Assembly (NCBI GenBank): GCA_902793465.1
Contig: CADBDT010000007.1
Span: 14,322-78,321, forward strand
Length of the DNA stretch: 64,000 nt
Origin: an uncultured Coriobacteriaceae bacterium
Lineage (GTDB): Bacteria > Actinomycetota > Coriobacteriia > Coriobacteriales > Atopobiaceae
Reading direction: 5' to 3'
The stretch's first letter is position 1, and each line of letters begins with the position of its first letter. Under the pieces are notes generated by a model, which did no database searches, was not told the origin of the DNA, and worked only from the letters and a program-made list of their open reading frames with translations. Below are positions 10,624 through 61,553 of the stretch, one piece after another. A program made the translations under genes and the position numbers.

Positions 10624-10813
10624 GCGCCCGCGACGCGCTCCCGACGGCGTCATGGCTCTCGTGCATGCTCAGCGCTCGCTGCGCTCGTGATTCGCGCCCG
10701 CGGTGCGCTCGCGCTTGAGCCCGGGCTCTCTTGCATGCTCAGCGCTCGCTGCGCTCGCTCACTCGCTTCGCTCGTGATTCGCTGCAAGAGAGTCCGGGCT
10801 CAAGCGCGAGCGC
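10624..10813. repeat. Composite intergenic repeat: 69-bp tandem duplication plus a 31-bp inverted repeat
   Basis: GCGCCCGCGRYGCGCTC and GGCTCTCKTGCATGCTCAGCGCTCGCTGCGCTCG each recur with period 69. The arms 10705-10735 and 10783-10813 are complementary at 30 of 31 positions. Confidence 0.85.
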
Positions 10814-13799: not shown

Positions 13800-13921
13800 G
13801 CCGGGGGCCGGGACGGGGACGGCCCAGAAGTGGCCCGTGCTCAAACAGTCCTCGCATCGCTTCGCTCGCTGCGGAACTGCGCGCGGGCTCACTTCCGGAC
13901 CGCCCCCGTCCCGGTCCCCGC
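13800..13921. repeat. Family-1 structured repeat, copy A (forward orientation)
   Basis: Cores CCGTGCTCAAACAGTCCTC and TGCGGAACTGCGCGCGG, flanked by G/C-rich complementary arms (GGGGGCCGGGACGGGGACGG / CCGCCCCCGTCCCGGTCCCC). It ends 24 nt after the priA stop. Confidence 0.85.
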
Positions 13922-21353: not shown

Positions 21354-21396
21354 TTACTCCGATTAATCCTGTAATATGGTACTAGGAGGTGCAAAT

Positions 21397-21984
21397 ATGC
21401 TCTTGACTACTCGTATGCTCGAAGACCGGCTTTCCGAGTATGGGAATCCACGCAATAGAATAGGCCGTATGGTCGACGCCGGTGAACTCATACAAGTTCG
21501 CCGGGGGCTCTACGAGACGGACCGCACGGTGGCAGGTTGCGGTTTGGCGCCAAGCATTTATGGTCCCTCGTACCTTTCGTTCGAGTACGCAATGGCGCGT
21601 CATGGCCTCATTCCCGAAGCCGTGCACGTCTTTACATCTGCCACCTGCGCAAAGCGCAAGTCGCGTAGCTACGAGAACGCATACGGCCGGTACGACTACC
21701 AAGACGTTCCCGTCTCCGTGTTCTCCCTTTGTGTGGAGTTGGTACGCGAGCCAGGCTACCCGTACTGGATTGCGACCCCCGAGAAGTCGCTCTGCGACAA
21801 GCTGTACAAGTTGCCACCCGTTGCAAACAAGGTGGAGTTCGAGACGCTTCTTCTCGACGACCTTCGGATTGGCGAGGATTCCCTAGGGTCGCTCGACTTG
21901 AATGCAGTCGCAATGTTGGCGCGGCGCTATCGCTGCCGCAACGTAATGCGCCTCGCCAGCTACCTCAGGGGGATGCGCCGATGA
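21397..21984 (+). CDS. abiEi: AbiEi-family type IV antitoxin (transcriptional regulator)
   Basis: GELIQVRRGLYET...PSYLSFEYAMARHGLIPE...ATPEKSLCDKLY matches the AbiEi pattern. Start at ATG 21397 (AGGAGG upstream). ATGA overlap with the next gene. Confidence 0.85.
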   Translation: MLLTTRMLEDRLSEYGNPRNRIGRMVDAGELIQVRRGLYETDRTVAGCGLAPSIYGPSYLSFEYAMARHGLIPEAVHVFTSATCAKRKSRSYENAYGRYDYQDVPVSVFSLCVELVREPGYPYWIATPEKSLCDKLYKLPPVANKVEFETLLLDDLRIGEDSLGSLDLNAVAMLARRYRCRNVMRLASYLRGMRR

Positions 21985-22862
21985 AAACCATGCTCGACGC
22001 CATGCTTGAACCCTACGAGTCATCTACAGCCGAGCAGCGCAAGCTGGCGCTCAGGCAGGTCGCCCAAGAGGTTATTCTCTGCGGCCTGAGCCGTGCGGGG
22101 TTCTTCGGTCCCGCCGCGTTCTACGGAGGAACAGCCCTACGTATCTTTTACGGCCTCGACCGCTTTTCGGAGGACATGGACTTTTCGCTGCGGCAGCCAG
22201 ATGCGAATTTTGACCTTGGTCCATATCTCGCTTCGGCCGAACGAGAGTGCGAGGCTTGGAGCCTTCATTTCCATGCTGAGGAAAAGCGCAAGACGGGCAG
22301 GTCTGCCATCAAGTCCGCGTTCCTCAAGAGCAATACGCGCGAATGCCTGATCACGCTGTTCTCCGACGACGGAGTGGCGAATGCAATAGCCCCTGGCGAG
22401 CTCTTGCGCATAAAACTTGAGCTCGACACCGACCCCGCACCACATGCGACATTCGAGAGACAATACCGTCTTTTGCCGTCGCCCTACGAGGTCGGCCTCT
22501 ACGATACACCGTCGCTCCTTGCGGGCAAGGCACATGCTGTCATAGCACGCGCATGGAGGTCACGCGTCAAGGGGCGCGACCTCTATGACTACGTGTTCTA
22601 CCGCTCGAGAAACATCCCCGTTAACGTGGCGCATCTAGGGGCAAAGCTGCAGCAGACCGGCCAGGTTGCGTCGGGCCAGGATTTTGGTTTGGATGACGCG
22701 ACCCGGCTCCTGTGCGAGCGCTTCGAAAGCATAGACTATGTCCAAGCCAAGGCAGATGTCCTGCCGTTTATCCGTGATCCACATTCCCTTGACGTCTGGA
22801 GCGCGGACTTCTTCTGCTCCATTACCGAGGAGCTTTCCGAAGCGATTGCGGATGCTAACTAG
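21981..22862 (+). CDS. abiEii: AbiEii/AbiGii-family nucleotidyltransferase toxin
   Basis: FYGGTALRIFYGLDRFSEDMDFSL is the family signature (GGTAL...R.SEDLDF). Start refined to ATG 21981. Confidence 0.9.
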   Translation: MKTMLDAMLEPYESSTAEQRKLALRQVAQEVILCGLSRAGFFGPAAFYGGTALRIFYGLDRFSEDMDFSLRQPDANFDLGPYLASAERECEAWSLHFHAEEKRKTGRSAIKSAFLKSNTRECLITLFSDDGVANAIAPGELLRIKLELDTDPAPHATFERQYRLLPSPYEVGLYDTPSLLAGKAHAVIARAWRSRVKGRDLYDYVFYRSRNIPVNVAHLGAKLQQTGQVASGQDFGLDDATRLLCERFESIDYVQAKADVLPFIRDPHSLDVWSADFFCSITEELSEAIADAN

Positions 22863-22904
22863 ACGAGGCTGGCCTAGCAAGGGGGAGTAACCCTCTTGAT
22901 AGGT

Positions 22905-25274
22905 TCAGATCTGGTCGAGCATGCCCACGCCCCACTCTGCCACGCGCTCGCGCATGCCGTCCACGTCCAGGACGCCGTAGGCAAAGCCCTTGCGTACGAG
23001 CTCGGACGGCACGTACTCGTCGTACTTGTCGAACACCGGCACCTCGGCGGGATACAGGAGCTCCAAGGGGTCGAAGTCCTGCAACGCAGCGTTTTGCAGT
23101 GCGTCCAAAAACTCCTCGGCACCCGCCTTCATCCTAAACTGTATAAAGTACGGCCGCGACACGTCCACGCCCTTAATGCCCAGGCTTGCTGGAAGACGGA
23201 GCTTGATTACCCGCTCCAGCGCCAGGAACGCGTAGGTACCCAGCCAGGGAAAGAGCGCCCACATGTCCCCTCCCAGGTTGATGAGCGGGGCGCGCGTAAT
23301 CCCCGCGTTCATAGCCACGGTCCGTGCATGCGCCAGCCTCGCGCGGGCGTTCTTGCGCAAATAGGCATAGTCCTTGTGCTCGCGCAATACCTCGCGCATG
23401 CGTTCGAGCACGCGCGTGTTAATGTCACCAGGGCATTCTCCGAAATATGCCGGCACCTTTCCGCGAACCTGCGTGCAGTACACAAGCCTGCGCTTGTGGT
23501 CTATCTCCTCCACAATCCACACGTGCCCCGCTATGGCGAGCTTCTCGCCAACCGGCGGCGGCTGCACCACGGTTCCGAGCTCCTGGGAATCCGAGCGGAC
23601 AGTATACTCCTCGCTTTCCACAAACACACCGTAGAACCTAAAGTTGTTGGTCACGCGCTCGCCTGCCAGACCCACAATGAGCCCACCCGTCTCCGTGCGC
23701 TCTATGTGGTCCATATCCAGCATGTGTTGCAGAAGAACGCGATAGTCGTCCTGGCTCACGTTTGAGAAATACGCCAGACTCAGAACGCGGCTGGCCAACC
23801 CAGCGGGACTCAGCTCCCCGCTCGAGGCAAGCGTTGCCATGGTCTGATGATACAAAAGGCTATACGGCAGGCGGTCCGGGCGCGGTGGCTCCACCCAACG
23901 CTCCTCCACGTAGAGCTGAACCAACGCTATGCCCTGCAAGAGCTTCCAAGGTATGGTCTCGCTTACCATCGCGCGCGGCTCTGGCGGGTCTTCGCGCATT
24001 ACAAACCACATCTCGGGCGGCTCGCCGCGCCTTCCGGTCCTGCCCATGCGCTGCAAAAACGCGCTAACCGTAAAGGGCGCATCTATTTGGAAGGCCCTCT
24101 CCAGCCTCCCGATGTCTATGCCAAGCTCGAGCGTTGCCGTCGTGCAGGTGGTAAGGGCAAGCTCCTCGTCGCGCATGAGGTCCTCCGCCGTCTCCCTAAA
24201 GCTGGACGAAAGATTGCCGTGATGGATTAGAAAGCGGTCAGGTTCCCCGTTTGCCTCGCAGTAGCTTCGCAAGGAGGTCGTAACGGCCTCGCAGTCCTCG
24301 CGCGAATTGGAGAAGACGAGGCACTTGTGTCCCTGCGAGTGCTCGTAGATGTATGCGATGCCAGGATCGGCGTTCGCAGGAGCGGGGTTAGCGTCGGATT
24401 CGAGGGCATCGGCTTGCAAAGTTGCCGCTTCGACGACAGAGGCATCGCCTCGTTCTGGCGTTGGCGTATCGCCAGGCAGTCCAACCGGTTCGACCTTCTC
24501 CACGATGGCGTCCACATGCAAAGAGCCCCCGGCAGAACGCACCGCCCCCACTTGCTCCGTGGCCTGGGGGCCGTAGGTGTAAAAGTGCTCCATGGACAGG
24601 CGCCAGACCTGCCCCGCCTCCTCCACCCGAGGAACGATGGTGTACCTCCCCGTTCCCTTGGACAAGATCCTGCCGCATGCCTCAGGGTCGCCAATCGTCG
24701 CAGAGAGCCCTATTCGCCTTGGATTGCAGCGTGCCATGCGTTGCAATCTTTCCAGCAGGCACAACGTCTGCCCACCGCGATCTCCCCTTAGCAGCGAATG
24801 CACCTCGTCGATTACCACAAACCTCAGGTCACAGAACAGCTTTGGCACAACCGCATGCCTGTGCATGAGCATTGCCTCTAGCGACTCCGGCGTTATTTGC
24901 AGCACACCCCTGGGCTTCTTTACCATGCGTGCCTTATGCGATGCGCTCACGTCGCCGTGCCAGTGCCACACCGGTATTCCCGCATCGCGACAAAGGTCTT
25001 CGAGCCTGTAGAACTGGTCGTTTATGAGTGCCTTAAGGGGCCCGATGTAGAGCGCGCCAATGGAGGCTGGCGGGTCTTCGTCAAAGAGCGTGAGTATGGG
25101 AAAGAATGCCGCCTCGGTCTTGCCCGATGCGGTGGAGGATGTAAGCAGGACGTTTTCGTCCGTGTTAAAGATGGCATCTCCTGCAGCCACCTGAATACCC
25201 CTGAGCGACTCCCAGTCGTGGGCATAAATGAAGTCCTGCACAAACGGCGCATAGCGATCAAATACGTTAGACAT
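22905..25274 (-). CDS. sngC: DEVH-box superfamily-2 helicase (Lhr-like); putative Shango SngC
   Basis: Walker A TASGKTEAAF, DEVH box VVIDEVHSL, SAT motif LSATIG, and helicase-C motifs (MGRTGRRG). Third gene of the TerB-N / ATPase / helicase triad. Confidence 0.8.
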   Translation of the reverse strand: MSNVFDRYAPFVQDFIYAHDWESLRGIQVAAGDAIFNTDENVLLTSSTASGKTEAAFFPILTLFDEDPPASIGALYIGPLKALINDQFYRLEDLCRDAGIPVWHWHGDVSASHKARMVKKPRGVLQITPESLEAMLMHRHAVVPKLFCDLRFVVIDEVHSLLRGDRGGQTLCLLERLQRMARCNPRRIGLSATIGDPEACGRILSKGTGRYTIVPRVEEAGQVWRLSMEHFYTYGPQATEQVGAVRSAGGSLHVDAIVEKVEPVGLPGDTPTPERGDASVVEAATLQADALESDANPAPANADPGIAYIYEHSQGHKCLVFSNSREDCEAVTTSLRSYCEANGEPDRFLIHHGNLSSSFRETAEDLMRDEELALTTCTTATLELGIDIGRLERAFQIDAPFTVSAFLQRMGRTGRRGEPPEMWFVMREDPPEPRAMVSETIPWKLLQGIALVQLYVEERWVEPPRPDRLPYSLLYHQTMATLASSGELSPAGLASRVLSLAYFSNVSQDDYRVLLQHMLDMDHIERTETGGLIVGLAGERVTNNFRFYGVFVESEEYTVRSDSQELGTVVQPPPVGEKLAIAGHVWIVEEIDHKRRLVYCTQVRGKVPAYFGECPGDINTRVLERMREVLREHKDYAYLRKNARARLAHARTVAMNAGITRAPLINLGGDMWALFPWLGTYAFLALERVIKLRLPASLGIKGVDVSRPYFIQFRMKAGAEEFLDALQNAALQDFDPLELLYPAEVPVFDKYDEYVPSELVRKGFAYGVLDVDGMRERVAEWGVGMLDQI

Positions 25275-25342
25275 GGCCCACCCTCAACCTCAACTTATAA
25301 GTTAGCGCTTGGAGTCAAGCTCCCCTCATAGCGGCGTTGCCC

Positions 25343-26680
25343 CTAGATGGTGAACTCGGCATATTCGGAGCTCGCGGCCTCGCCCTCCTCGCCCTCGGGA
25401 CGCGCGTGCACAAAGTCGCCCGACCCAAGAAGCCCCGCAACGGTAATGCTTGGATCCTGCCACATTATGTCGAGCATCTCAATAAAGTCGCGAATGACCT
25501 CGCGTGGCGTTATGTGCGACTCCGCCCCCACGCGCCCGAACTCAAGCTGCAGGAACACGATAAGGTCGTCTTCCGTAAGGGTGCGAGTGTAGCCAAACAG
25601 GTCGGCGTGGATGTTGGCCAGCTTTTCTACCAGCACCAGAAGCTCCTCGTGCGTGAGGGGCTGAAGGCGAATTACGGGAGCCAGGAGGTCCACCATGCCC
25701 TCGCGCCCGAACCTGCCCTGCGTGAGCCTGGAGCGCAGCGCCTCGTAGGAATACAGCCCGCGACGCCGGTCCTCCACGCACTGCGGCGTTCCGCTCATAA
25801 TTACACCCAAGTGTTCCGCCCTGCCCTGCAGGGCGTCATTGTACATGGTAAGGATCTTTTCGTAGTTGTATTGGCGCGAAATGGCATGTGGGATCTTGTA
25901 CAGATTTACCAGCTCGTCCACGAGCACCACGAGCCCTTCGTACCCTGCGCCCACCAAGAACCGCGCAAGCAGCTTTATGTAGTCGTACCAATCGTCATCC
26001 GAGATTATGCAGCCTACCCCAAGCTCGTTCTTTGCCTCGGTCTTGTTGCGATACTCCCCACGGAACCACTTTGAGACGTAAGACTTGGTCTCGTCGTCTG
26101 CCTCCACATGCGCGCGGTAGTACATGGAGAGCACGCGCGCGAAGTCGAACCCGTGTACCATCTGCTGCAGGTCGTCTATAACCACGTAGATGCGACGTTC
26201 CACCTCGGCGTTGAAGCCGGGGTCGTCCGGAGAGATTCCGTCCTGCGCGACGGCACTCTGTATGCCAGCGATCCAGCGATCGAGCACAAGCGTAAGCGCA
26301 CCGCCCTCCGGCCGGGTCCTGGTGGAAAGGTTGCGAACGAGCTCTCGGTACGTGGCAAGCCCCTGTCCCTTTGTTCCCTGCAGCCGGCGCTCCGGGGAAA
26401 GGTCTGCATCTGCGACCACGAAGTTCTTGCCCATGGCATGGTTTCGAATCGTCTGAAGTAGGAAGCTCTTTCCGCTGCCGTAGCGTCCCACTACGAACCT
26501 AAACGAAGCTCCACCCTCGGACACTATGCTCAAGTCCCGCAGCAAGGCTCCTATCTCTGCCTCGCGCCCAACCGTAATGTAGGGCAGTCCCACACGGGGC
26601 ACCACACCGCCCTTGAGGGAGTTTATGAGAACTGTTGCTATGCGCTTTGGTACGCGCTGACCCTGCTTGGTATCCGCCAT
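25343..26680 (-). CDS. sngB: DUF2791-like P-loop ATPase; putative Shango SngB
   Basis: LINSLKGGVVPRVGLPYITVGREAE...VVGRYGSGKSFLL (Walker A) and LVVLVDELVNL (Walker B). Start refined to ATG 26680 (GAGGTGG upstream). Confidence 0.78.
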   Translation of the reverse strand: MADTKQGQRVPKRIATVLINSLKGGVVPRVGLPYITVGREAEIGALLRDLSIVSEGGASFRFVVGRYGSGKSFLLQTIRNHAMGKNFVVADADLSPERRLQGTKGQGLATYRELVRNLSTRTRPEGGALTLVLDRWIAGIQSAVAQDGISPDDPGFNAEVERRIYVVIDDLQQMVHGFDFARVLSMYYRAHVEADDETKSYVSKWFRGEYRNKTEAKNELGVGCIISDDDWYDYIKLLARFLVGAGYEGLVVLVDELVNLYKIPHAISRQYNYEKILTMYNDALQGRAEHLGVIMSGTPQCVEDRRRGLYSYEALRSRLTQGRFGREGMVDLLAPVIRLQPLTHEELLVLVEKLANIHADLFGYTRTLTEDDLIVFLQLEFGRVGAESHITPREVIRDFIEMLDIMWQDPSITVAGLLGSGDFVHARPEGEEGEAASSEYAEFTI

Positions 26681-26802
26681 AATCCACCTCGCTCGTTCGA
26701 ATACACAAGTATACACTGCGTACACGTGTTCGTAAAGTACGTAAACGAGACGGTTTGAGTGAGGACTCACGGCACCCTGCAACGTGCCCGAATGGAAGTA
26801 GC

Positions 26803-28470
26803 TTATCCCAGCATATCCTTTACGTCCTGTATGTAGTCCTCCACGAGCACGGGGCTTCCCCCGTCGAACTCCACCACGGTGTCGCCTATCTCGTCTAGCA
26901 GCGCCTCGTTAATGGAGTCTGCGGCAAGCGTAAGGAACATGTCGTCATACTGCTCTAGAGGGCTTCCGTCCAAGAGCGCCAGCAACAGCTGCAGATGCTC
27001 CTCGCTGAGGCCTAGCGTGTTGGCTGGCGCCCTCTGTGCCTGAACCTCAACCACTACTTGAGGTGCAGCTTTAGGCTTTTCCGCCGGCTCGATGTCCATA
27101 TCGTCCTCGGTGAGTAGCGCTTCTTGCGTACGAATGGACGCGTTGCGTATTCCGGCAAGAGAATTGCGATCTATTCGTATGTGAGCGGCCTCCGCTGCCT
27201 TCTTGCGCGCCAAATACGCTTCGATTTCCTCGTCCACGAACTTTGCCTGATACTTGGGAAGCGGCTTCTCCTTAAGCGGGTGCGCATCACCAAAGGCGAG
27301 TCTGGTACGTGCGTCTATGGCGTGCAACAGGGCTCCGAGCTCTTTGCTCTTATCCGTACGTCGGCATGGGTACTCGCGCGTCCAAAAACCACGACTGCAT
27401 ATATAGACCTCGCCAGCTGACGCCTCGTACCTTACGTCCTCATGCCGCTTTCCGGTCCAGAAAACGGCCGAAGGGAACATAAAGTAGCTTCTGCCAGTGG
27501 CTGGCCCAAAGAGGCCGTCGATGTAGTTGGTCTTGCGACGCTTGTTGCAATGCGCCACCATGCGGGCAAACACGTTGCAGGTAATCTGTGCAACAGCCTC
27601 TTTGTTCTCGCGTACAAAGCGAGATCGGTCTGCACGATAGCGCGATAACGCCACAAGAGCATCCAGCAACTCTTCCTGCGTAGGCATCCCGTCCAAGTGC
27701 TTAACGGGCCATTCGGAAAGGCGGTTGTCCAGCAGCACCCGCTCGGCTGCCCTGAGCACTACGACATTCTTTGATCCAAAGTCGTTGGGCAGAGGGGCGA
27801 GCAACTGGGCGTCCAGGCCATGGAACACAATATAGTCGTGCCTCCATCGCCGCATGTAGGAATCAAACGCCTGGCTTATACCCTTATATTGCTCTGCAAA
27901 TTCGTCTAGCTCGGCAAGCCCCGGCATGCCTTCTGGGGCTCCGATGCCGCATAGCAGCTCGTAGGCGTGCACGAACAAGAAGGGAAGCGTCGCGTATGTT
28001 ACCTCTCCGTGCCTGAGTCGCGTTCTCCAACCAAAATAGCACCTAAGCTGAAAGTCGCTCATTGCCTCGTACGTTGGAAAATAACAGTCGAAGGAGCACT
28101 CCCCGTCAAAGTCGTCCTCGAAGTCCTCCATCAGTTTGCCCTGCTCGTAAAAGAGCCTCCAGCTAGAAGTTCCACCACGCCTTGGGGAACCTGCCATGCG
28201 ACGCATTTTGCGGTACTCTGGCGGCAGCGCACGCCTTGCGCGGGCCTGTTGGAGCCTGGCGTGCAAATCGGGATGTACGCCCACTCCCCTATCGACGTCT
28301 TTAATAGCCTCGTCTTCGGAAAAGAGCGCTTCCTGATGCGGACACGCCGTCTTGCGCGCCCCAGCACGCAAGATGGGCTCGTCCGTATACGTTCGCTCGG
28401 AAAAAATGCGCGAGTTTACGTACCGCTCATCAGACAAGATCTGGTCTACGATGTCTTGCGCGCGCGTCAT
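26803..28470 (-). CDS. sngA: TerB-N / TerB-C domain protein; putative Shango SngA
   Basis: YFPTYEAMSDFQLRCYFGWRTRLRHGEVTYATLPFLFVHAYELLCGIG fits TerB-N. The C-terminal LLALLDG...ADSINEALLDEIGDTVVEFD fits TerB-C. ATG 28470 is used as the start; a TTG at 28476 is an alternative. Confidence 0.78.
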   Translation of the reverse strand: MTRAQDIVDQILSDERYVNSRIFSERTYTDEPILRAGARKTACPHQEALFSEDEAIKDVDRGVGVHPDLHARLQQARARRALPPEYRKMRRMAGSPRRGGTSSWRLFYEQGKLMEDFEDDFDGECSFDCYFPTYEAMSDFQLRCYFGWRTRLRHGEVTYATLPFLFVHAYELLCGIGAPEGMPGLAELDEFAEQYKGISQAFDSYMRRWRHDYIVFHGLDAQLLAPLPNDFGSKNVVVLRAAERVLLDNRLSEWPVKHLDGMPTQEELLDALVALSRYRADRSRFVRENKEAVAQITCNVFARMVAHCNKRRKTNYIDGLFGPATGRSYFMFPSAVFWTGKRHEDVRYEASAGEVYICSRGFWTREYPCRRTDKSKELGALLHAIDARTRLAFGDAHPLKEKPLPKYQAKFVDEEIEAYLARKKAAEAAHIRIDRNSLAGIRNASIRTQEALLTEDDMDIEPAEKPKAAPQVVVEVQAQRAPANTLGLSEEHLQLLLALLDGSPLEQYDDMFLTLAADSINEALLDEIGDTVVEFDGGSPVLVEDYIQDVKDMLG

Positions 28471-28479
28471 AGCCAAGCT

Positions 28480-29797: not shown

Positions 29798-29830
29798 GCA
29801 CGGCGGGGACAGCTCGGGTGCGTCGTGGAT

Positions 29831-29910
29831 GGGGTGCCGCTTGGGGATACTCCCCCTGCGGTACATTGTCCACAATGTACCGCAGGGGGAGTATCCCCAA
29901 GCGGCACCCC
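29831..29910. repeat. Family-2 structured repeat, copy 1: perfect 39-2-39 palindrome
   Basis: GGGGTGCCGCTTGGGGATACTCCCCCTGCGGTACATTGT-CC-ACAATGTACCGCAGGGGGAGTATCCCCAAGCGGCACCCC. I verified the arms as exact reverse complements. It ends 23 nt after the helicase stop. Confidence 0.92.
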
Positions 29911-29933
29911 ACCTTACGGGAGACCACACCCCT

Positions 29934-34024: not shown

Positions 34025-34060
34025 TCTCCCCCTTAGACAGTCCAAAACTCGTAGTGGCAA

Positions 34061-34172
34061 GCCGTGCCGTAAGGGGATACTCCCCTACCGGGTACATCGC
34101 GGATAGCCTTCCTCATGCATAGATGCCCTGCTCGCGATGCATCCGATGGGGAGTATCCCCTTACGGCACGGC
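34061..34172. repeat. Family-2 structured repeat, copy 2
   Basis: 25-bp perfect outer stem GCCGTGCCGTAAGGGGATACTCCCC / GGGGAGTATCCCCTTACGGCACGGC. Inner GGGTACATCGCG box and a 28-nt centre. It ends 16 nt after the isochorismatase-family stop. Confidence 0.9.
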
Positions 34173-34188
34173 TCGGGTCGGGCGCACG

Positions 34189-34752
34189 CTAAGACACAGC
34201 CTCCACAAACGCCTGCGCACTTACGATGGCAGAGCCGTAGCACTTCCTAAAGTGCTCGATGCCCGCCTCCTGCGTCCCACATAGGAACGTACGCGTGGCG
34301 TCTTCGACCACAACGGACTCGTACCCGCGATAATATGCATCTGCCAGCGTGTGGAGCACGCAGATGTTGGTGTCTTCCCCCACGGCAATTACGGTCTTTA
34401 TGCCCAGCTCGCGCAGGAGCAGGTCCAGGCTCGTTCCAAAGAAGGCCGAGTAGCGGCGCTTCTCTATTATGAAGTCACGGCTACCCGAGCCCGCCTTGAG
34501 CGCCGGATTGGGTACGGCCTTCCCGGCTACCCCATGCTCGCCCCACAGCTCGAGTTCCTTGTCGACTCCCAGAATGTGCGCGTCGTCGCAAAAGACCACG
34601 GGCATACCCGCGGCACGCGCCGCATCCACTACCCGGACGGAGTTACGCACCACACGCTCCTCGTCGGGGCTCGGGTTGTAAAGGGTGTCGTCGCCTTCCG
34701 TAACCAGCACGTCTATTACAAGCACTGCTGTGTTCTTTACATCAATGTTCAT
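34189..34752 (-). CDS. Isochorismatase-family cysteine hydrolase (nicotinamidase-like)
   Basis: 187 aa. VLVIDV near the N-terminus and catalytic-Cys region GEDTNICVLHT. Confidence 0.85.
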   Translation of the reverse strand: MNIDVKNTAVLVIDVLVTEGDDTLYNPSPDEERVVRNSVRVVDAARAAGMPVVFCDDAHILGVDKELELWGEHGVAGKAVPNPALKAGSGSRDFIIEKRRYSAFFGTSLDLLLRELGIKTVIAVGEDTNICVLHTLADAYYRGYESVVVEDATRTFLCGTQEAGIEHFRKCYGSAIVSAQAFVEAVS

Positions 34753-37972: not shown

Positions 37973-38030
37973 GTGGCCCGCAAATTGGGGATAATCCCAC
38001 AGACTGTCCGAAAACTCGTGATGGAGTGGC

Positions 38031-38300
38031 GTGCCGTGTGGGGATACTCCCCTATGGGTACATCGCGGATAGGCCAGCCCGCAAAGGAATCGCTACTTGC
38101 GATGTACCCGACGGAGAGTATCCCACCGCCATTTAGTTAGCGCTGTGCACATTGGGGATACTCCCCTGCGGGTACATCGCGGATGAGCCGTACTCCAACG
38201 AAAGCCCTACTCGCGATGTACCCGATGGGGAGTATCCCCTATGTGCACAGCTCCCCCGGACCCTTAACTAAATAGCGGTGGGAGTGCCCCCTCACGGCAC
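38031..38300. repeat. Family-2 structured repeats, copies 3 (38031-38126) and 4 (38142-38251), in a nested composite
   Basis: Two units, each GGGGATACTCCCC...GGGTACATCGCGGAT...CGCGATGTACCCGA.GG.GAGTATCCC. There is an extra inverted pair, CCCACCGCCATTTAGTTA (38122) / TAACTAAATAGCGGTGGG (38265), and a degenerate third right arm ending in CACGGCAC at 38300. Confidence 0.88.
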
Positions 38301-38319: not shown

Positions 38320-39345
38320 CTAATACGACTCGCCGTAGTATGTGTAGCCCGTATCGGTGCCGTAGCTGTTGTCGTAGCCGGTGTAGTCGTAACCGTTCTG
38401 CGCTCCGGTCCCGCCGGTGTTGTCGTAACCGTTCTGCGCTCCGGTCCCGCCGGTGTTGTCGTAACCGGTGGATGTGTCGTAGCCAGTACCATAGTCGTTC
38501 GTTCCGCCCGCATTGCCAGTGTAACTCTGTTGCGAGCTCGACGAGGACTCCTGCGAGACACTCGCATCGGAAGAGGTGTCCAGGTACTCTTCCAGGGAAA
38601 TGCCCCTGTCCATAATCTCTGCGGCAGAATCCTTTCCAACGTACCTAAAGTGCCAAGGGATATAGGAATACCCCGTGTAGTACTCCTTGTCGTTGGGATA
38701 GCGGAGGATAAACCCGTGCTTGGCTAGATAAGCGTGAACCGTCTTCCAGGTGCTCACCTTCTCCAAGAGCTCTTCCTTCTTGGTTACGGGTACGCCATTT
38801 TCCAGCAATATGGCATCAAACGAGAGCCCTGTGTTGTAGTCCGAATGTCCTGGCTTTGCCACGTACTCCGTTACGTAGTCCTCGCCATATTCCTTCTTGT
38901 AGTCGTCCCACAGCTTTTGCTGATCGGAAGCGCTACGGTATCCCGAACCCACTTCCAGCACAATGCCCTCGTTGTTCTTGAGGTCGTCCTTAAGCTCCGC
39001 AAACGCGTCATTTGCCACCTTGTCCAGACGTACCGTGTCCCCCTTTGTGTTCTTGGACTCCACGAGCTCGAGCTTTTGCTCCCAGTCCTCTGGCAAACTT
39101 GTACTCTTGTTTGCCAACACAAGCAGGTTAAGTCGGCCGTCTTCACTTGTGGCAGTCTTCTTGCCCGCATCGGACAGCTGCACAGCATTCTGCCCCGCCT
39201 GAGAGACATCTATTGTCTCCAACTGGTTGGACGCAGCAGCGGAACCACTCTTAAGGCCCTTGCAGCCAAAGAGCGCGCATAGCAGAGCTAAGCACGGTAC
39301 CAGGACGATCAGCGAGAACCGCCCTCCAAGCAAAGATCTCGTCAC
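38320..39345 (-). CDS. VanY/M15B-family D-alanyl-D-alanine carboxypeptidase-like lipoprotein with low-complexity G/Y/N/T tail
   Basis: Lipobox LFGC. SGYRSASDQQ, PGHSDYNTGLSFD and IPWHFRYVG metallopeptidase motifs. Confidence 0.85.
   Translation of the reverse strand: MTRSLLGGRFSLIVLVPCLALLCALFGCKGLKSGSAAASNQLETIDVSQAGQNAVQLSDAGKKTATSEDGRLNLLVLANKSTSLPEDWEQKLELVESKNTKGDTVRLDKVANDAFAELKDDLKNNEGIVLEVGSGYRSASDQQKLWDDYKKEYGEDYVTEYVAKPGHSDYNTGLSFDAILLENGVPVTKKEELLEKVSTWKTVHAYLAKHGFILRYPNDKEYYTGYSYIPWHFRYVGKDSAAEIMDRGISLEEYLDTSSDASVSQESSSSSQQSYTGNAGGTNDYGTGYDTSTGYDNTGGTGAQNGYDNTGGTGAQNGYDYTGYDNSYGTDTGYTYYGESY
38386..38457. repeat. Exact 36-bp tandem duplication inside the VanY-like tail (plus a partial third unit)
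   Basis: GTCGTAACCGTTCTGCGCTCCGGTCCCGCCGGTGTT occurs twice in a row. It encodes NTGGTGAQNGYD twice. Confidence 0.92.
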
Positions 39346-46586: not shown

Positions 46587-46697
46587 GGCCACCTCCACAC
46601 TTTAGATGCTTGGGTTACATGTTACACGTTGCACGCACCAACGGAGCGCATCAGCACGAAAATATGTAGCACGGCCCTGCTGCGTTCGTGCACAGAC

Positions 46698-46891
46698 GGT
46701 AGGCCCAGGGGGAGCCGAGACGGGCGGCGGTATGGCGAGGCGGCGTGGAAGAGGCCGTGCTCAGGCAGTCCTCGCGCGATTAGCGAACACGAAACCTTAA
46801 TGGTTTTCCCGCGCTGCGGAACTGCGCGCGGCCTCGGTCCATGCCGCCTCGCTTCATACCGCCGCCCGTCTCGGCTCCCCCTGGGCCTACC
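46698..46891. repeat. Family-1 structured repeat, copy B (forward; full length with apical module)
   Basis: The outer 37 nt of each arm are exact reverse complements (GGTAGGCCCAGGGGGAGCCGAGACGGGCGGCGGTATG). The cores are present, with a 42-nt apical insert. It ends 18 nt after the MFS stop. Confidence 0.92.
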
Positions 46892-46909
46892 GCCTGACTG
46901 GACTCTCTA

Positions 46910-50093: not shown

Positions 50094-50216
50094 GTGGCAG
50101 CTCCCGTTTGCTCGAACCTTTATGCACCCATTCTAGCATGCACTGCAGCAACTGCCCGCAATGCCTCCCAAACCACAAATAAGGGGTACTACGAAAGCCC
50201 ATGGTGGTAATACATG

Positions 50217-50363
50217 CCTGCAGACCGCCCCACCCATCAGCCCGACCAGCGAGGCGCTGTAGAAAGCAGCCGCGCGCAGTTCCGCAGGAACGAGGACTGT
50301 TTGAGCACGGCGCTTATCCACGGTGCCTTGCTGGTCGGGCTGATGGGTGGCGCGGTCTGCAGG
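50217..50363. repeat. Family-1 structured repeat, copy C (reverse orientation; minimal apical loop)
   Basis: Arms CCTGCAGACCGCCCCACCCATCAGCCCGACCAGCGAGGC / GCCTTGCTGGTCGGGCTGATGGGTGGCGCGGTCTGCAGG. Cores are in reverse complement. It lies in the divergent rpe/glgB intergenic region. Confidence 0.9.
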
Positions 50364-50476
50364 CACGACACGTCGTCGAACCTGTAGCCCGTTTGTGGTC
50401 AGTTATTGCACGGTTTGCCCTCTTGCATGGTTTGGAGTACTATGCTTCGGCTACGTGCAAACAGGCGGGAGGCTTC

Positions 50477-52267
50477 ATGAATTTAGAAGACTTTTATGCT
50501 GGGGCGGATTTCTTTGCCCATACCTGGCTGGGCGCACACCTAAAAGACGGTGGCGTTACGTTTAGAACATACGCACCTGCAGCCGAGCATGTTTACGTTC
50601 GCACCAACTGGGACGACGTGCCCATGCAACGCGTTGCAGACGGGAACATATGGGAAACCCATGTGGACGGCATGGGCCCAGGTGACCCTTATACCTACAT
50701 AATCCATCACAACGAAGAAGCCCACGAGCACTGCGATCCCTATGGCTATGGTATGGACCTGCGGCCGTCGCATCGCTCAATCGTGCGCGACCTTACGTTC
50801 GAATGGCACGACGACGGTTGGATGTCCAACCGTTCTACCTGCTACGACGAGCCCCTCAACATCTACGAGCTTCACCTTGGCAGCTGGCGCAAACGCAGCG
50901 GTGTACACCAGAGCACGTATGTTGGCGACTGGTTTACCTATGCGGAGATTGCCTATCAGCTAATTCCCTATCTCAAAGAGACGGGATACACCCATGTGGA
51001 GTTCCTGCCACTCATGGAACATCCCTACGACGGCTCGTGGGGGTACCAGCCAACGGGATTCTTCTCGCCCACCAGCCGCTATGGCACCGCTCACCAGCTC
51101 ATGGAGCTTGTGGACATGCTCCACTGCGCGGGCATCGGGGTTATTTTGGACTTCGTGCCCGTGCACTTTGCCACGGATGACTACGGCCTGGCGCTCTACG
51201 ACGGCACTCCCCTCTATGAGCCTACCGATCCCAAAGAGGCCAAGAGCGAGTGGGGTAGCTATAACTTTGCGCACGAGCGCGGGGGTGTTCGCTCCTTCTT
51301 GCAGAGTGCGGCCAACTACTGGCTTGGCGCGTATCACTTTGACGGCCTGCGCATGGACGCCATAAGTCGCGTAATCTACAAGCACGGCGACAAGAGCTGC
51401 GGCATAAACGCCCCTGCGGTTGAGTTCGTACGCAACATGAACGGCGGGCTCAAGTACCTTAATCCAAACACCATGCTCATAGCCGAGGACTCGACCGACT
51501 ATCCCGGAGTTACCACACCCGTTGATCGAGGCGGCCTTGGCTTTGACTACAAGTGGGACATGGGATGGATGAACGACACGCTCAACCTCTTTCGCACGCC
51601 ACCCAAGGAGCGCAGCGACCACTACAACAAGCTGTCTTTCTCAATGATGTACTACCCGCACGAGCGCTATTTGCTCTCGCTCTCGCACGACGAGGTCGTG
51701 CACGAGAAGGCCACCATAGTGCAAAAGATGTGGGGCGACTACGACCTCAAGTTTCCGCAGGCACGAACCCTTGCCTTGTACATGTATGCGCATCCGGGAA
51801 AGAAGCTCAACTTTATGGGTTGCGAGTTGGCACAGCTACGCGAATGGGACGAGTGCCGCGAGCAGGACTGGTCGCTTAGGCAATACCCCCTGCATGACTC
51901 GTTCTACCGCTTTTGCGTAGAGCTCAACGACCTGCACGCAAACCACCCGGCGCTCTGGGCAAACGACTACGACAGCCAGGGTTTTGCATGGAGACAGGTA
52001 TCCGACCCCACCAATGTGGTCTATGCCTTCGAACGCCGCAGCGCAAGCGAGCGAATGCTCTGCGTACTCAACCTCTCGGACAAGGAGCTGCCAGGCTATG
52101 TGGTAAGCCTCGACAACGTCCGTCGCGCGCAGATTCTGCTCAACACCGACTGGAAGCGTTTTAGCGGCTCGACGTACGAGGACGACCGTCGTTGGTTCAA
52201 GCTTGCAAACAACCAGCTAACCTGCACGCTGGCGCCTTTCTCTGGTCAGCTCTATCTAATGGAATAA
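50477..52267 (+). CDS. glgB: 1,4-alpha-glucan branching enzyme
   Basis: GH13 conserved regions DFVPVHF, GLRMDAISRV, AEDSTDYPG and SHDEVVH. Start refined to ATG 50477 (GGCGGGAGG upstream). The ORF-track start at 50201 runs through the repeat. Confidence 0.95.
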   Translation: MNLEDFYAGADFFAHTWLGAHLKDGGVTFRTYAPAAEHVYVRTNWDDVPMQRVADGNIWETHVDGMGPGDPYTYIIHHNEEAHEHCDPYGYGMDLRPSHRSIVRDLTFEWHDDGWMSNRSTCYDEPLNIYELHLGSWRKRSGVHQSTYVGDWFTYAEIAYQLIPYLKETGYTHVEFLPLMEHPYDGSWGYQPTGFFSPTSRYGTAHQLMELVDMLHCAGIGVILDFVPVHFATDDYGLALYDGTPLYEPTDPKEAKSEWGSYNFAHERGGVRSFLQSAANYWLGAYHFDGLRMDAISRVIYKHGDKSCGINAPAVEFVRNMNGGLKYLNPNTMLIAEDSTDYPGVTTPVDRGGLGFDYKWDMGWMNDTLNLFRTPPKERSDHYNKLSFSMMYYPHERYLLSLSHDEVVHEKATIVQKMWGDYDLKFPQARTLALYMYAHPGKKLNFMGCELAQLREWDECREQDWSLRQYPLHDSFYRFCVELNDLHANHPALWANDYDSQGFAWRQVSDPTNVVYAFERRSASERMLCVLNLSDKELPGYVVSLDNVRRAQILLNTDWKRFSGSTYEDDRRWFKLANNQLTCTLAPFSGQLYLME

Positions 52268-52509: not shown

Positions 52510-52673
52510 GACCACAACGGGGACAGCCCCTAAGAAATGGTCGAAACCGCGAGGTGCCACGGAAAGCAGCCGCGCGCAGTTCCGCAACGAAGTGAGGACT
52601 GTCTGAGCACGGCGCTTGTCCATGGCGCCGAAAGGTTTCGACCATTTCTTAGGGGCTGTCCCCGTTTGTGGTC
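52510..52673. repeat. Family-1 structured repeat, copy D (reverse orientation)
   Basis: Arms GACCACAACGGGGACAGCCCCTAAGAAATGGTCGAAACC / GGTTTCGACCATTTCTTAGGGGCTGTCCCCGTTTGTGGTC (one-nt indel). Cores are in reverse complement. It ends 4 nt after the gpsA stop. Confidence 0.92.
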
Positions 52674-55702: not shown

Positions 55703-55820
55703 GGGGCCACCTTTCCTGCGTGTTACGTTCAGGGGATGATTTTATCACGTTCACCGACGCGCCCTGTATCTGCACAGATAAGCCAAAGAGCTGGCTTTCA
55801 AACAACGAAACAACGACGGA

Positions 55821-55997
55821 GGCCGCCATCGAACCCGGGAACGGACGAGGGGGCGGCAGTGCGGAGGATGCCGTGCTCAAACAGTCCTCGCGCGAAAAGC
55901 TGTTACGAACCTTCATGGGTAACTCGCGCTGCGGAACTGCGCGCGGCACTCCTCCGCACTGCCGCCCCCTCGTCCGTTCCCGGGTTCGATGGCGGCC
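55821..55997. repeat. Family-1 structured repeat, copy E (forward; full length with apical module)
   Basis: Arms of about 50 bp (GGCCGCCATCGAACCCGGGAACGGACGAGGGGGCGGCAGTGCGGAGGA and its complement). Cores plus a 41-nt apical insert similar to copy B. It ends 20 nt after the DUF512 stop. Confidence 0.92.
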
Positions 55998-56017
55998 GCT
56001 GTTATGGTTTTCCCACA

Positions 56018-61218: not shown

Positions 61219-61413
61219 AGGCCGATTGAGTACAGCATGCGTAGCTCTGTGTATAGCCTTTGCTCCATAGTGTCCCCCGCAAACAATTGGTTAACGCACC
61301 GGCGCCATCTTGCAGCTTGTAACGTTAATAACCAAGATTGCTGCGCAAACGCCCACCTAACGATAAAAGAGTCTAACAGTTAATGCCTTCTGGCATTTCG
61401 AAAAAAGCGTTCT

Positions 61414-61507
61414 GATTGGGGATACTCCCCTACGGGTACATTGCGGGAATCCCCGCTCGTTATTAGAGGACTATTCGCGATGTGCCCGATGTGGAGTATC
61501 CCCAATC
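61414..61507. repeat. Family-2 structured repeat, copy 5
   Basis: GATTGGGGATACTCCCCTACGGGTACATTGCGG...CGCGATGTGCCCGATGTGGAGTATCCCCAATC. It ends 46 nt after the rluB stop. Confidence 0.88.
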
Positions 61508-61553
61508 GGCACAGTCCACGTCACGTCAAGCAAAAAGCTCACGAAAGCGCATG

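Follow-up and report, generated by a model that had tools for sequence, protein, structure and literature searches.

A probable REPIN-like family of hairpin doublets in rumen Atopobiaceae, with a Y1 transposase gene flanked by such repeats in related Coriobacteriia

REP/RAYT systems reportedly exist in Pseudomonas fluorescens and E. coli, in work credited to Nunvar in 2010 and to Bertels and Rainey in 2011. A REPIN comprises two inverted REPs separated by a less conserved spacer; it forms a hairpin, shows compensatory changes and is associated with RAYTs, and an alternative ‘clover’ fold is available to its two units (PMC3116915). TIRYTs are RAYT-like genes flanked by inverted repeats that share the motif GGGGWSAS (Di Nocera et al. 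2013, PMC3733652), and these repeats constitute moderately abundant families found as singles, dimers and clusters. TIRYTs have been equated with the subclass 2.1 TnpA-Y1 proteins, which possess an HTH C-terminus (HTH_23, HTH_28 or DnaA_C-like), and no REP-like sequences were found beside the subclass 2.1 genes in the same study (Quentin et al. 2018, PMC6006769).

We analysed a palindromic repeat, family 2, in a 64-kb stretch of DNA from an uncultured rumen actinobacterium (hereafter, the window). With a probability of roughly 0.7, family 2 consists of REPIN-like doublets of a class that, in related Coriobacteriia, is tied to a Y1 enzyme of the RAYT/TIRYT type. RAYTs presumably spread repeats of the REP/REPIN type between genes. 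A copy comprises two REP-type hairpin units in inverted orientation, the unit being tipped by the invariant mini-palindrome GGGGA-TAC-TCCCC. The resemblance to REPIN-RAYT systems extends to the inverted doublets, the spacer, the alternative between a long hairpin and a clover, the compensatory changes, the extragenic placement, and the occurrence of singlets and clusters. The box-to-box spacing is 73 nt in family 2 versus 71 nt in the GI REPIN (PMC3116915), and related loci carry a Y1 HUH gene flanked by repeats, for whose product the best fold is TnpA-REP (4ER8). The differences are also clear. The REPIN foot GT[AG]G is absent, positions −9 to −5 reading KWGCY (GTGCC in the window) with no GTAG or GTGG, and the invariant part is the hairpin tip in family 2, whereas it is the foot in REPINs. 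In addition, the enzyme here, approximately 250 aa long, ends in an HTH domain and falls short of the NCBIfam RAYT cutoff, and the host is an actinobacterium (Coriobacteriia) rather than a proteobacterium.

With TIRYTs, the system shares a RAYT-like transposase that is longer than RAYTs and ends in an HTH_23/HTH_28-like domain, as well as dispersed repeat families present as singles, dimers and clusters; it differs in its repeats, which take the form of self-complementary hairpin units and are placed around the gene in a REPtron-like manner. The start of the window box, GGGGATAC, fits GGGGWSAS at 7/8 positions (T in place of S), and GGGGAGAC (L049) and GGGGACAC (L011) fit at 8/8; family 2 was therefore filed as a new family of the known RAYT/TIRYT kind. 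Judging from domain content, the Y1 enzymes are probably subclass 2.1 TnpA-Y1 proteins. IS200/IS605 elements are similar in having a related fold and subterminal imperfect hairpins, which their Y1 HUH enzymes bind as single strands. However, gene and ends do not recur here together in many copies as one unit, the repeats are scattered with no Y1 gene attached, and the protein of locus L030 scores only 21 bits against the IS200 profile.

According to the initial annotation, the repeat would no longer be novel if it matched a known family. No Rfam family matched at the gathering threshold, and at a relaxed E-value only sub-threshold miRNA-hairpin models matched the elements, which merely reflects long hairpins. 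A match was obtained at the level of the class, namely, REP/REPIN repeats and RAYT/TIRYT-associated TIR repeats, so that family 2 is a new family in rumen Atopobiaceae but not a new kind of element. The box sequence itself was not found in the literature searched, and among the matches listed for RAYT with Coriobacteri*, none concerned REP/RAYT repeats.

The five palindromic copies initially annotated in the window were all recovered where they had been reported, and all are intergenic (Table 1). Common to all five is a 13-nt box, GGGGATACTCCCC/GGGGAGTATCCCC. There are 8 exact matches to the box GGGGANNNTCCCC in the window (0.03 expected), 13 to GGGGATACTCCCC with up to two mismatches (0.93 expected), and 7 to GTGCCGNNNGGGG (0.23 expected), the last always located within family 2 elements. 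An arm profile built from the ten arms retrieved exactly those ten arms from the window, together with two weak remnants. Family 2 alone accounts for about 0.8–0.9% of the window. All window copies are predicted to fold into long hairpins whichever strand is considered (z-scores between −4.5 and −17.8), and the local hairpin of the single unit is weak in the window family, copy 1 excepted.

Table 1. Coordinates and context of family 2 elements in the window and of associated features in related loci.
Feature	Position	Strand	Description	Genomic context
Copy 1	29830-29911		Perfect 40+2+40 palindrome, 100% complementary, both arms left-type; boxes 29843-29855 and 29886-29898	About 22-23 nt past the stop of the DUF3516-helicase gene (29934); 108 nt before the metK start (29721)
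Copy 2	34060-34173		Inverted doublet, 31-nt centre, flanks AGCCGTGCCGTAA / TTACGGCACGGCT; boxes 34073-34085 and 34148-34160	About 15-16 nt past the isochorismatase stop (34189); about 35 nt before the DUF218 start
Copy 3	38031-38126		Doublet, left box 38040-38052; right flank lost	Copies 3/4: VanY-like to DAO; VanY-like stop at 38320
Copy 3, degenerate right box	38113-38125		GGAGAGTATCCCA	
Copy 4	38142-38251		Doublet, boxes 38154-38166 and 38227-38239, flanks GCTGTGCACATT / TATGTGCACAGC	Copies 3/4: as for copy 3
Inverted 16-mers flanking copy 4	38263-38278, partner 38126-38141			
Degenerate extra arm closing the compound locus	38263-38300		Box-like TGGGAGTGCCCCC at 38279-38291	
TCACGGCAC	38292-38300		Pairs with GTGCCGTGT at 38031	
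Copy 5	61409-61512		Doublet, boxes 61418-61430 and 61491-61503 (1 mismatch)	rluB to a gene of unknown function; outer end 41 nt from the rluB stop (61554)
Box-like remnant	37987-37999	+	GGGGATAATCCCA	Adjoins the tail common to copies 2 and 3
Y1 ORF, locus L030	2980-3738	-	252 aa	Between two doublets
Y1 locus L038			Tip AGGGATACTCCCC, close box variant	
Y1 locus L040			Tip AGGGATACTCCCC, close box variant	
Y1 locus L046			Tip GGGGGATACTCCC, close box variant	
Y1 locus L052			Tip GGGGATACTCCCT, close box variant	
Y1 locus L049			Tip GGGGAGTCTCCCC, close box variant	
Y1 locus L043			Tip GGGGTGGGACCC, different from the other tips	
Congener palindrome, L007	19637-19764		About 120 nt	
Congener palindrome, L008	20913-21032		About 120 nt	
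Congener palindrome, L011	19442-19559		About 120 nt	

The structural reading proposed initially, with conserved boxes, a variable centre, a polarity, and variable flanks complementary to each other, proved correct and was reinforced by the wider loci described below. The 3-nt linker that joins GTGCCG to the box indeed varies from copy to copy and is complementary within each copy (CTT/AAG, TAA/TTA, and ATT/AAT). Some details required revision. The internal mismatch, described as 3×3, exists as an internal loop, but its size is effectively 2×2 (TR opposite AT), as the third position pairs. In the alignment of the ten window arms, left-type arms read box, TRY, and GGGTACATCGCG-GA, and right-type arms read box, RTC, and GGGTACATCGCG-AG; copy 1, comprising two left-type arms, has neither the mismatch nor the centre. 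Copies 3 and 4 together form one compound locus (38031-38300), bounded by GTGCCGTGT...TCACGGCAC. Separately, on the gene strand, copies 2 and 3 continue past the hairpin with a common stretch of approximately 27 nt, CCAYYAYCACGAGTTTTSGGACWGTCT (34033-34058 and 37998-38025), which could represent either a tail belonging to the element or a flank duplicated along with it.

A two-box scan of metagenomes (boxes 32–62 nt apart) yielded 20 further loci with the identical 13-nt box. Their stems and centres are unrelated, representing at least six stem families, and homology between loci is confined to approximately 100–190 nt with differing neighbouring genes, which indicates several dispersed repeat families. 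Across 59 units, the motif was KWGCY-N4-GGGGATACTCCCC-N4-RGCWM, and in each of them the box was the tip of a local hairpin. Units stand alone as singlets, pair up as inverted doublets or gather in clusters, and most of them lie downstream of genes. Both candidate folds were evaluated in a gap-free alignment of 26 doublets, in which relatedness inflates the counts and at least six unrelated stem families contribute: in the long-hairpin fold, 87.8% of cells were paired (69.9% when shuffled and at most 50.3% when slid) and 24/37 pairs had changed on both sides, and in the fold of two local hairpins the corresponding values were 74% (63.7% and at most 48.5%, respectively) and 21/34. In the local fold, a mostly unpaired 3×3 loop adjoins the box stem. 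Perfect palindromes were observed in copy 1, in L018 and at 5033-5100 of L011.

Other searches delimited the distribution. The pattern of box plus inner box had no match in JGI metagenomes or viral contigs, and the two-box pattern had none in viral contigs. When genome contigs were scanned for box plus inner box, at least one match was obtained, in L001; it is a single arm without a partner and was treated as a chance hit, since approximately 3 such hits would arise by chance with 20 fixed bases in 596 Gb. Further copies were also sought via spurious ORFs, with concatenated six-frame peptides as the query, and no hit was obtained.

The link to an enzyme comes from L030, in which an ORF for a Y1 protein lies between two doublets with the identical box, one located 7 nt past its stop codon and the other 34 nt before its ATG. 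The ORF matched Pfam Y1_Tnp (PF01797) with E = 8e-12, and the best profile for the protein was NCBIfam NF047646 ‘REP-associated tyrosine transposase’ (55.4 bits, below the curated cutoff of 80). E. coli TnpA-REP (4ER8) was the only sequence match in the PDB. It was also the best PDB fold match (E = 6e-7, TM 0.71 on target) of an AlphaFold model of the Y1 protein (pLDDT 91.5), which has a helical C-terminal domain; the transposases of IS608, ISDra2 and IS200 ranked behind it (IS200/IS605 at ranks 2–30). We retrieved 403 homologues of the L030 protein at E < 1e-10, approximately 250 aa long and mostly on short contigs, some of which were named Atopobiaceae or Coriobacteriaceae. The HUH motif (N-H-x-H), the Tyr in R-Y-x-H-x-N-P, and W-S-S are invariant among the homologues, and the proteins of approximately 250 aa show a C-terminal HTH_23 domain that scores as high as 26 bits where the cutoff is 24.6.

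Hairpin repeats flanked the Y1 gene on both sides in all six further homologue loci examined, five of which carry GGGATACTCCC or GGGGAGWCTCCCC. Including L030, 7/7 Y1 genes are therefore hairpin-flanked, 6/7 by the family 2 box or a close variant of it (Table 1). The Y1 genes of L038, L040 and L043 share the same synteny near rpoBC, with proteins only 68–77% identical, and this conserved synteny fits vertical inheritance of a single-copy gene. The hairpins of L043 (9860-9935 and 10755-10835) carry GGGGTGGGACCC, and that of L038 (3780-3870) carries AGGGATACTCCCC; as the Y1 orthologues of these two loci are 77% identical, the link between tip and enzyme is not a simple one. The Y1 gene is absent from the window and from the 9.6 kb beyond its start, no transposase was recognised among the window ORFs tested, and three look-ups for the Y1 gene of this genome produced matches in other species only.

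The position of the copies relative to genes bears on their possible function. Among the genes predicted in the window, 47/57 are on the minus strand, and the GC skew is constant. It had been proposed that each locus ends 16–46 nt downstream of a minus-strand stop codon. This was true of copies 1, 2 and 5 (23, 16 and 46 nt, respectively, the last value being reached with the initially annotated end at 61507). For copy 4, the distance to the VanY-like stop is 68 nt, or 19 nt when measured from the degenerate arm. All four window loci are situated between co-directional minus-strand genes, always nearer the upstream stop, so that ‘3′ of a stop’ is equally ‘5′ of the next start’. The bias towards gene ends persisted in the wider sample: 11 placements were between co-directional genes, the four window loci among them, 6 between convergent genes, and 1 between divergent genes. 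Genes in the wider loci were called with a codon log-odds model in place of a simple GC3 caller, which was unreliable; the model matched the strand and stop of every called gene in L007 and L011, and its starts are approximate.

Such placement is what would be expected if the elements were primarily 3′-end elements of transcripts, that is, terminators or exonuclease blocks held under RNA-structure selection, their similarity having arisen by duplication or conversion. Intrinsic terminators without a U-tract have been proposed for Actinobacteria, and family 2 resembles intrinsic terminators in being a GC-rich hairpin just past stop codons, including between convergent genes. All window copies lie approximately 16–68 nt past a stop, with the next start farther away, convergent placements outnumber the divergent one, the RNA hairpins are very stable, and the pairs covary. 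A terminator-type role, as suggested in the initial annotation, was neither shown nor needed, and a T-run directly follows copy 5 only, where the hairpin on the gene (minus) strand leads straight into CTTTTTTCG; an adjacent U-tract is missing at the other four of the five copies. The stems, at 35–45 bp, and the conservation of sequence across loci and genomes also set family 2 apart from intrinsic terminators, and the mismatches show no G-U preference on the transcribed strand. Terminators have no need of a 13-nt tip that stays identical in many genomes on stems that are unrelated. Furthermore, the same units flank both ends of Y1 genes, the 5′ side included, and one cluster (L019) lies between divergent genes. 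We consider a primary 3′-end role unlikely.

The copies could also be double-stranded palindromic sites for a DNA-binding protein, for example, the HTH of a domesticated Y1 enzyme, rather than mobile DNA. The motif, a palindrome of 31 bp with fixed spacing, would suit such a site, the associated protein has an HTH domain, and its gene is held in conserved synteny in three species. However, the asymmetric TAC/GTA loop is strictly conserved and always inverted in doublets, and the stems covary, as is more in keeping with a folded single strand than with a site in duplex DNA; the copies also differ between congeners. We thus regard the binding-site reading as improbable. A conventional MITE moved by a DDE transposase via terminal inverted repeats would likewise be a short, non-coding, dispersed palindromic repeat, but there are no target-site duplications or flanking direct repeats, the outermost ends vary while the conserved box is internal, and no DDE transposase is nearby, the associated gene encoding a Y1 HUH enzyme; this origin appears highly improbable. 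Least credible of all are integron-like attC sites at the 3′ ends of gene cassettes, which share the order of paired box, unpaired spacer, paired box and variable terminal structure and might account for the isochorismatase gene and copy 2 being an indel relative to congeners, but whose RYYYAAC/GTTRRRY cores are lacking in the copies, as are an integrase and a cassette array among neighbours that are syntenic housekeeping genes. The attC, DDE-MITE and Rfam readings were accordingly rejected on their defining features.

Several observations count against the REPIN-like reading: the Y1 gene of this genome did not turn up, near-identical strains showed no presence/absence difference, only five copies are known from this genome, the local unit hairpin is weak in the window outside copy 1, the GT[AG]G foot is missing, the NCBIfam score lies under its cutoff, and the orthologues of L038 and L043 are flanked by different tips. 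On this reading, a mechanism can be proposed. By analogy with IS200/IS605 and REP-RAYT systems, we infer that family 2 is mobilised by the Y1 enzyme, which would recognise the folded single-stranded unit during replication. The determinant of recognition would likely be the hairpin tip, together with the GCC/GGC stem element of most units, and the enzyme would cut and rejoin DNA at the hairpin foot, thereby multiplying doublets in the genome. Since the stems need only pair, they would drift and then be re-matched, either because selection maintains the hairpin, or because template switching copies one arm onto the other, or both. Template switching at quasipalindromes is an established process, and the perfect palindromes (copy 1, L018 and L011) would favour some arm-to-arm copying. 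Such re-matching would yield the ‘compensatory’ flanks and, occasionally, a perfect palindrome such as copy 1. Copies would survive mainly just past stop codons and hence be transcribed as strong 3′ hairpins, which may secondarily stabilise or terminate transcripts; such a secondary role is plausible, copy 5 being the one copy whose sequence points to it. The full scheme, in which Atopobiaceae would maintain a vertically inherited REPIN-RAYT-like partnership combining a subclass-2.1/TIRYT Y1 enzyme, recognition of an invariant tip in place of a GTAG foot, species-specific stems free to change as long as they pair, and doublets perhaps made by arm-to-arm copying, is offered tentatively, with odds that we place slightly below even.

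On the REPIN-like reading, a conspicuous repeat of an uncultured rumen actinobacterium is explained without a new type of RNA or element, and the range of REP/REPIN-like repeats and tyrosine transposases is extended to Coriobacteriia. The poorly understood HTH-bearing TIRYT/subclass 2.1 enzymes would be tied to hairpin doublets in a REPtron-like arrangement, and a testable recognition motif is supplied, consisting of the invariant 13-nt tip and the GCC/GGC stem element of most units.

Contigs identical to the window are present in several rumen metagenomes, and homologues were named uncultured Atopobiaceae, within Coriobacteriales. Five copies of family 2 are known from this genome, within approximately 74 kb; the 9.6 kb beyond the window start contained no further copies. 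The initial annotation had raised the possibility that copies are polymorphic between strains, but no presence/absence difference was detected among strains 99.9–100% identical. Isolated SNPs among near-identical strains were located only inside elements, at 38191, 38194 and 38209 in the centre of copy 4 and at 34156 in the right box of copy 2, and could be due to hypermutation of loops, to sequence conversion by other copies, or to noise in the assembly. In the same strain, short contigs break off within copy 2, as expected of a multicopy repeat. Repeats of this kind thus break metagenome assemblies, and they are also useful as strain or species markers.

In congeners whose helicase is 82–85% identical at the amino acid level and in which synteny is kept, no family 2 arms were found in the orthologous gaps, and this divergence is too large for their absence to prove insertion. 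Empty target sites (GTGCCG N0-24 CGGCAC) were looked for and none were found. The orthologous gaps of congeners hold other palindromes, some with the related tips GGGGAGTGTCCCC/GGGGACACTCCCC and GGGGACTGTCCCC. One congener palindrome family, approximately 120 nt long with a 34-nt centre, follows the DEAD helicase gene at an equivalent position in L007, L008 and L011 (Table 1). Copy 2 marks the junction of an indel that distinguishes this genome from its congeners and comprises the isochorismatase gene (34189-34752). This gene occurs only in the present species, between DUF1667 and DUF218, a position occupied by a 52-nt gap in the congener L007 and by a different palindrome in L011.

Several features of the window outside family 2 were also recorded. 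A 36-bp tandem repeat within the VanY-like gene (38377-38484) differs in copy number in the strain contig L003. A defence-like gene cluster at 21376-28476 encodes AbiEi/AbiEii, a DEAD helicase, a BrxC/D-like ATPase, and TerB_N/TerB_C. Where the TerB_C gene ends (26849-26956), 17 SNPs in 108 bp distinguish the window from L002, which is otherwise identical to it over 20.5 kb, and these SNPs look like a recombination patch. The palindromes of family 1, with the core GCGCTGCGGAACTGCGCGCGG, are located at 10705-10813, 13802-13920, 46693-46896, 50215-50365, 52516-52666 and 55808-56010, and two of them bracket a glycogen-branching-like gene at 50201-52267.
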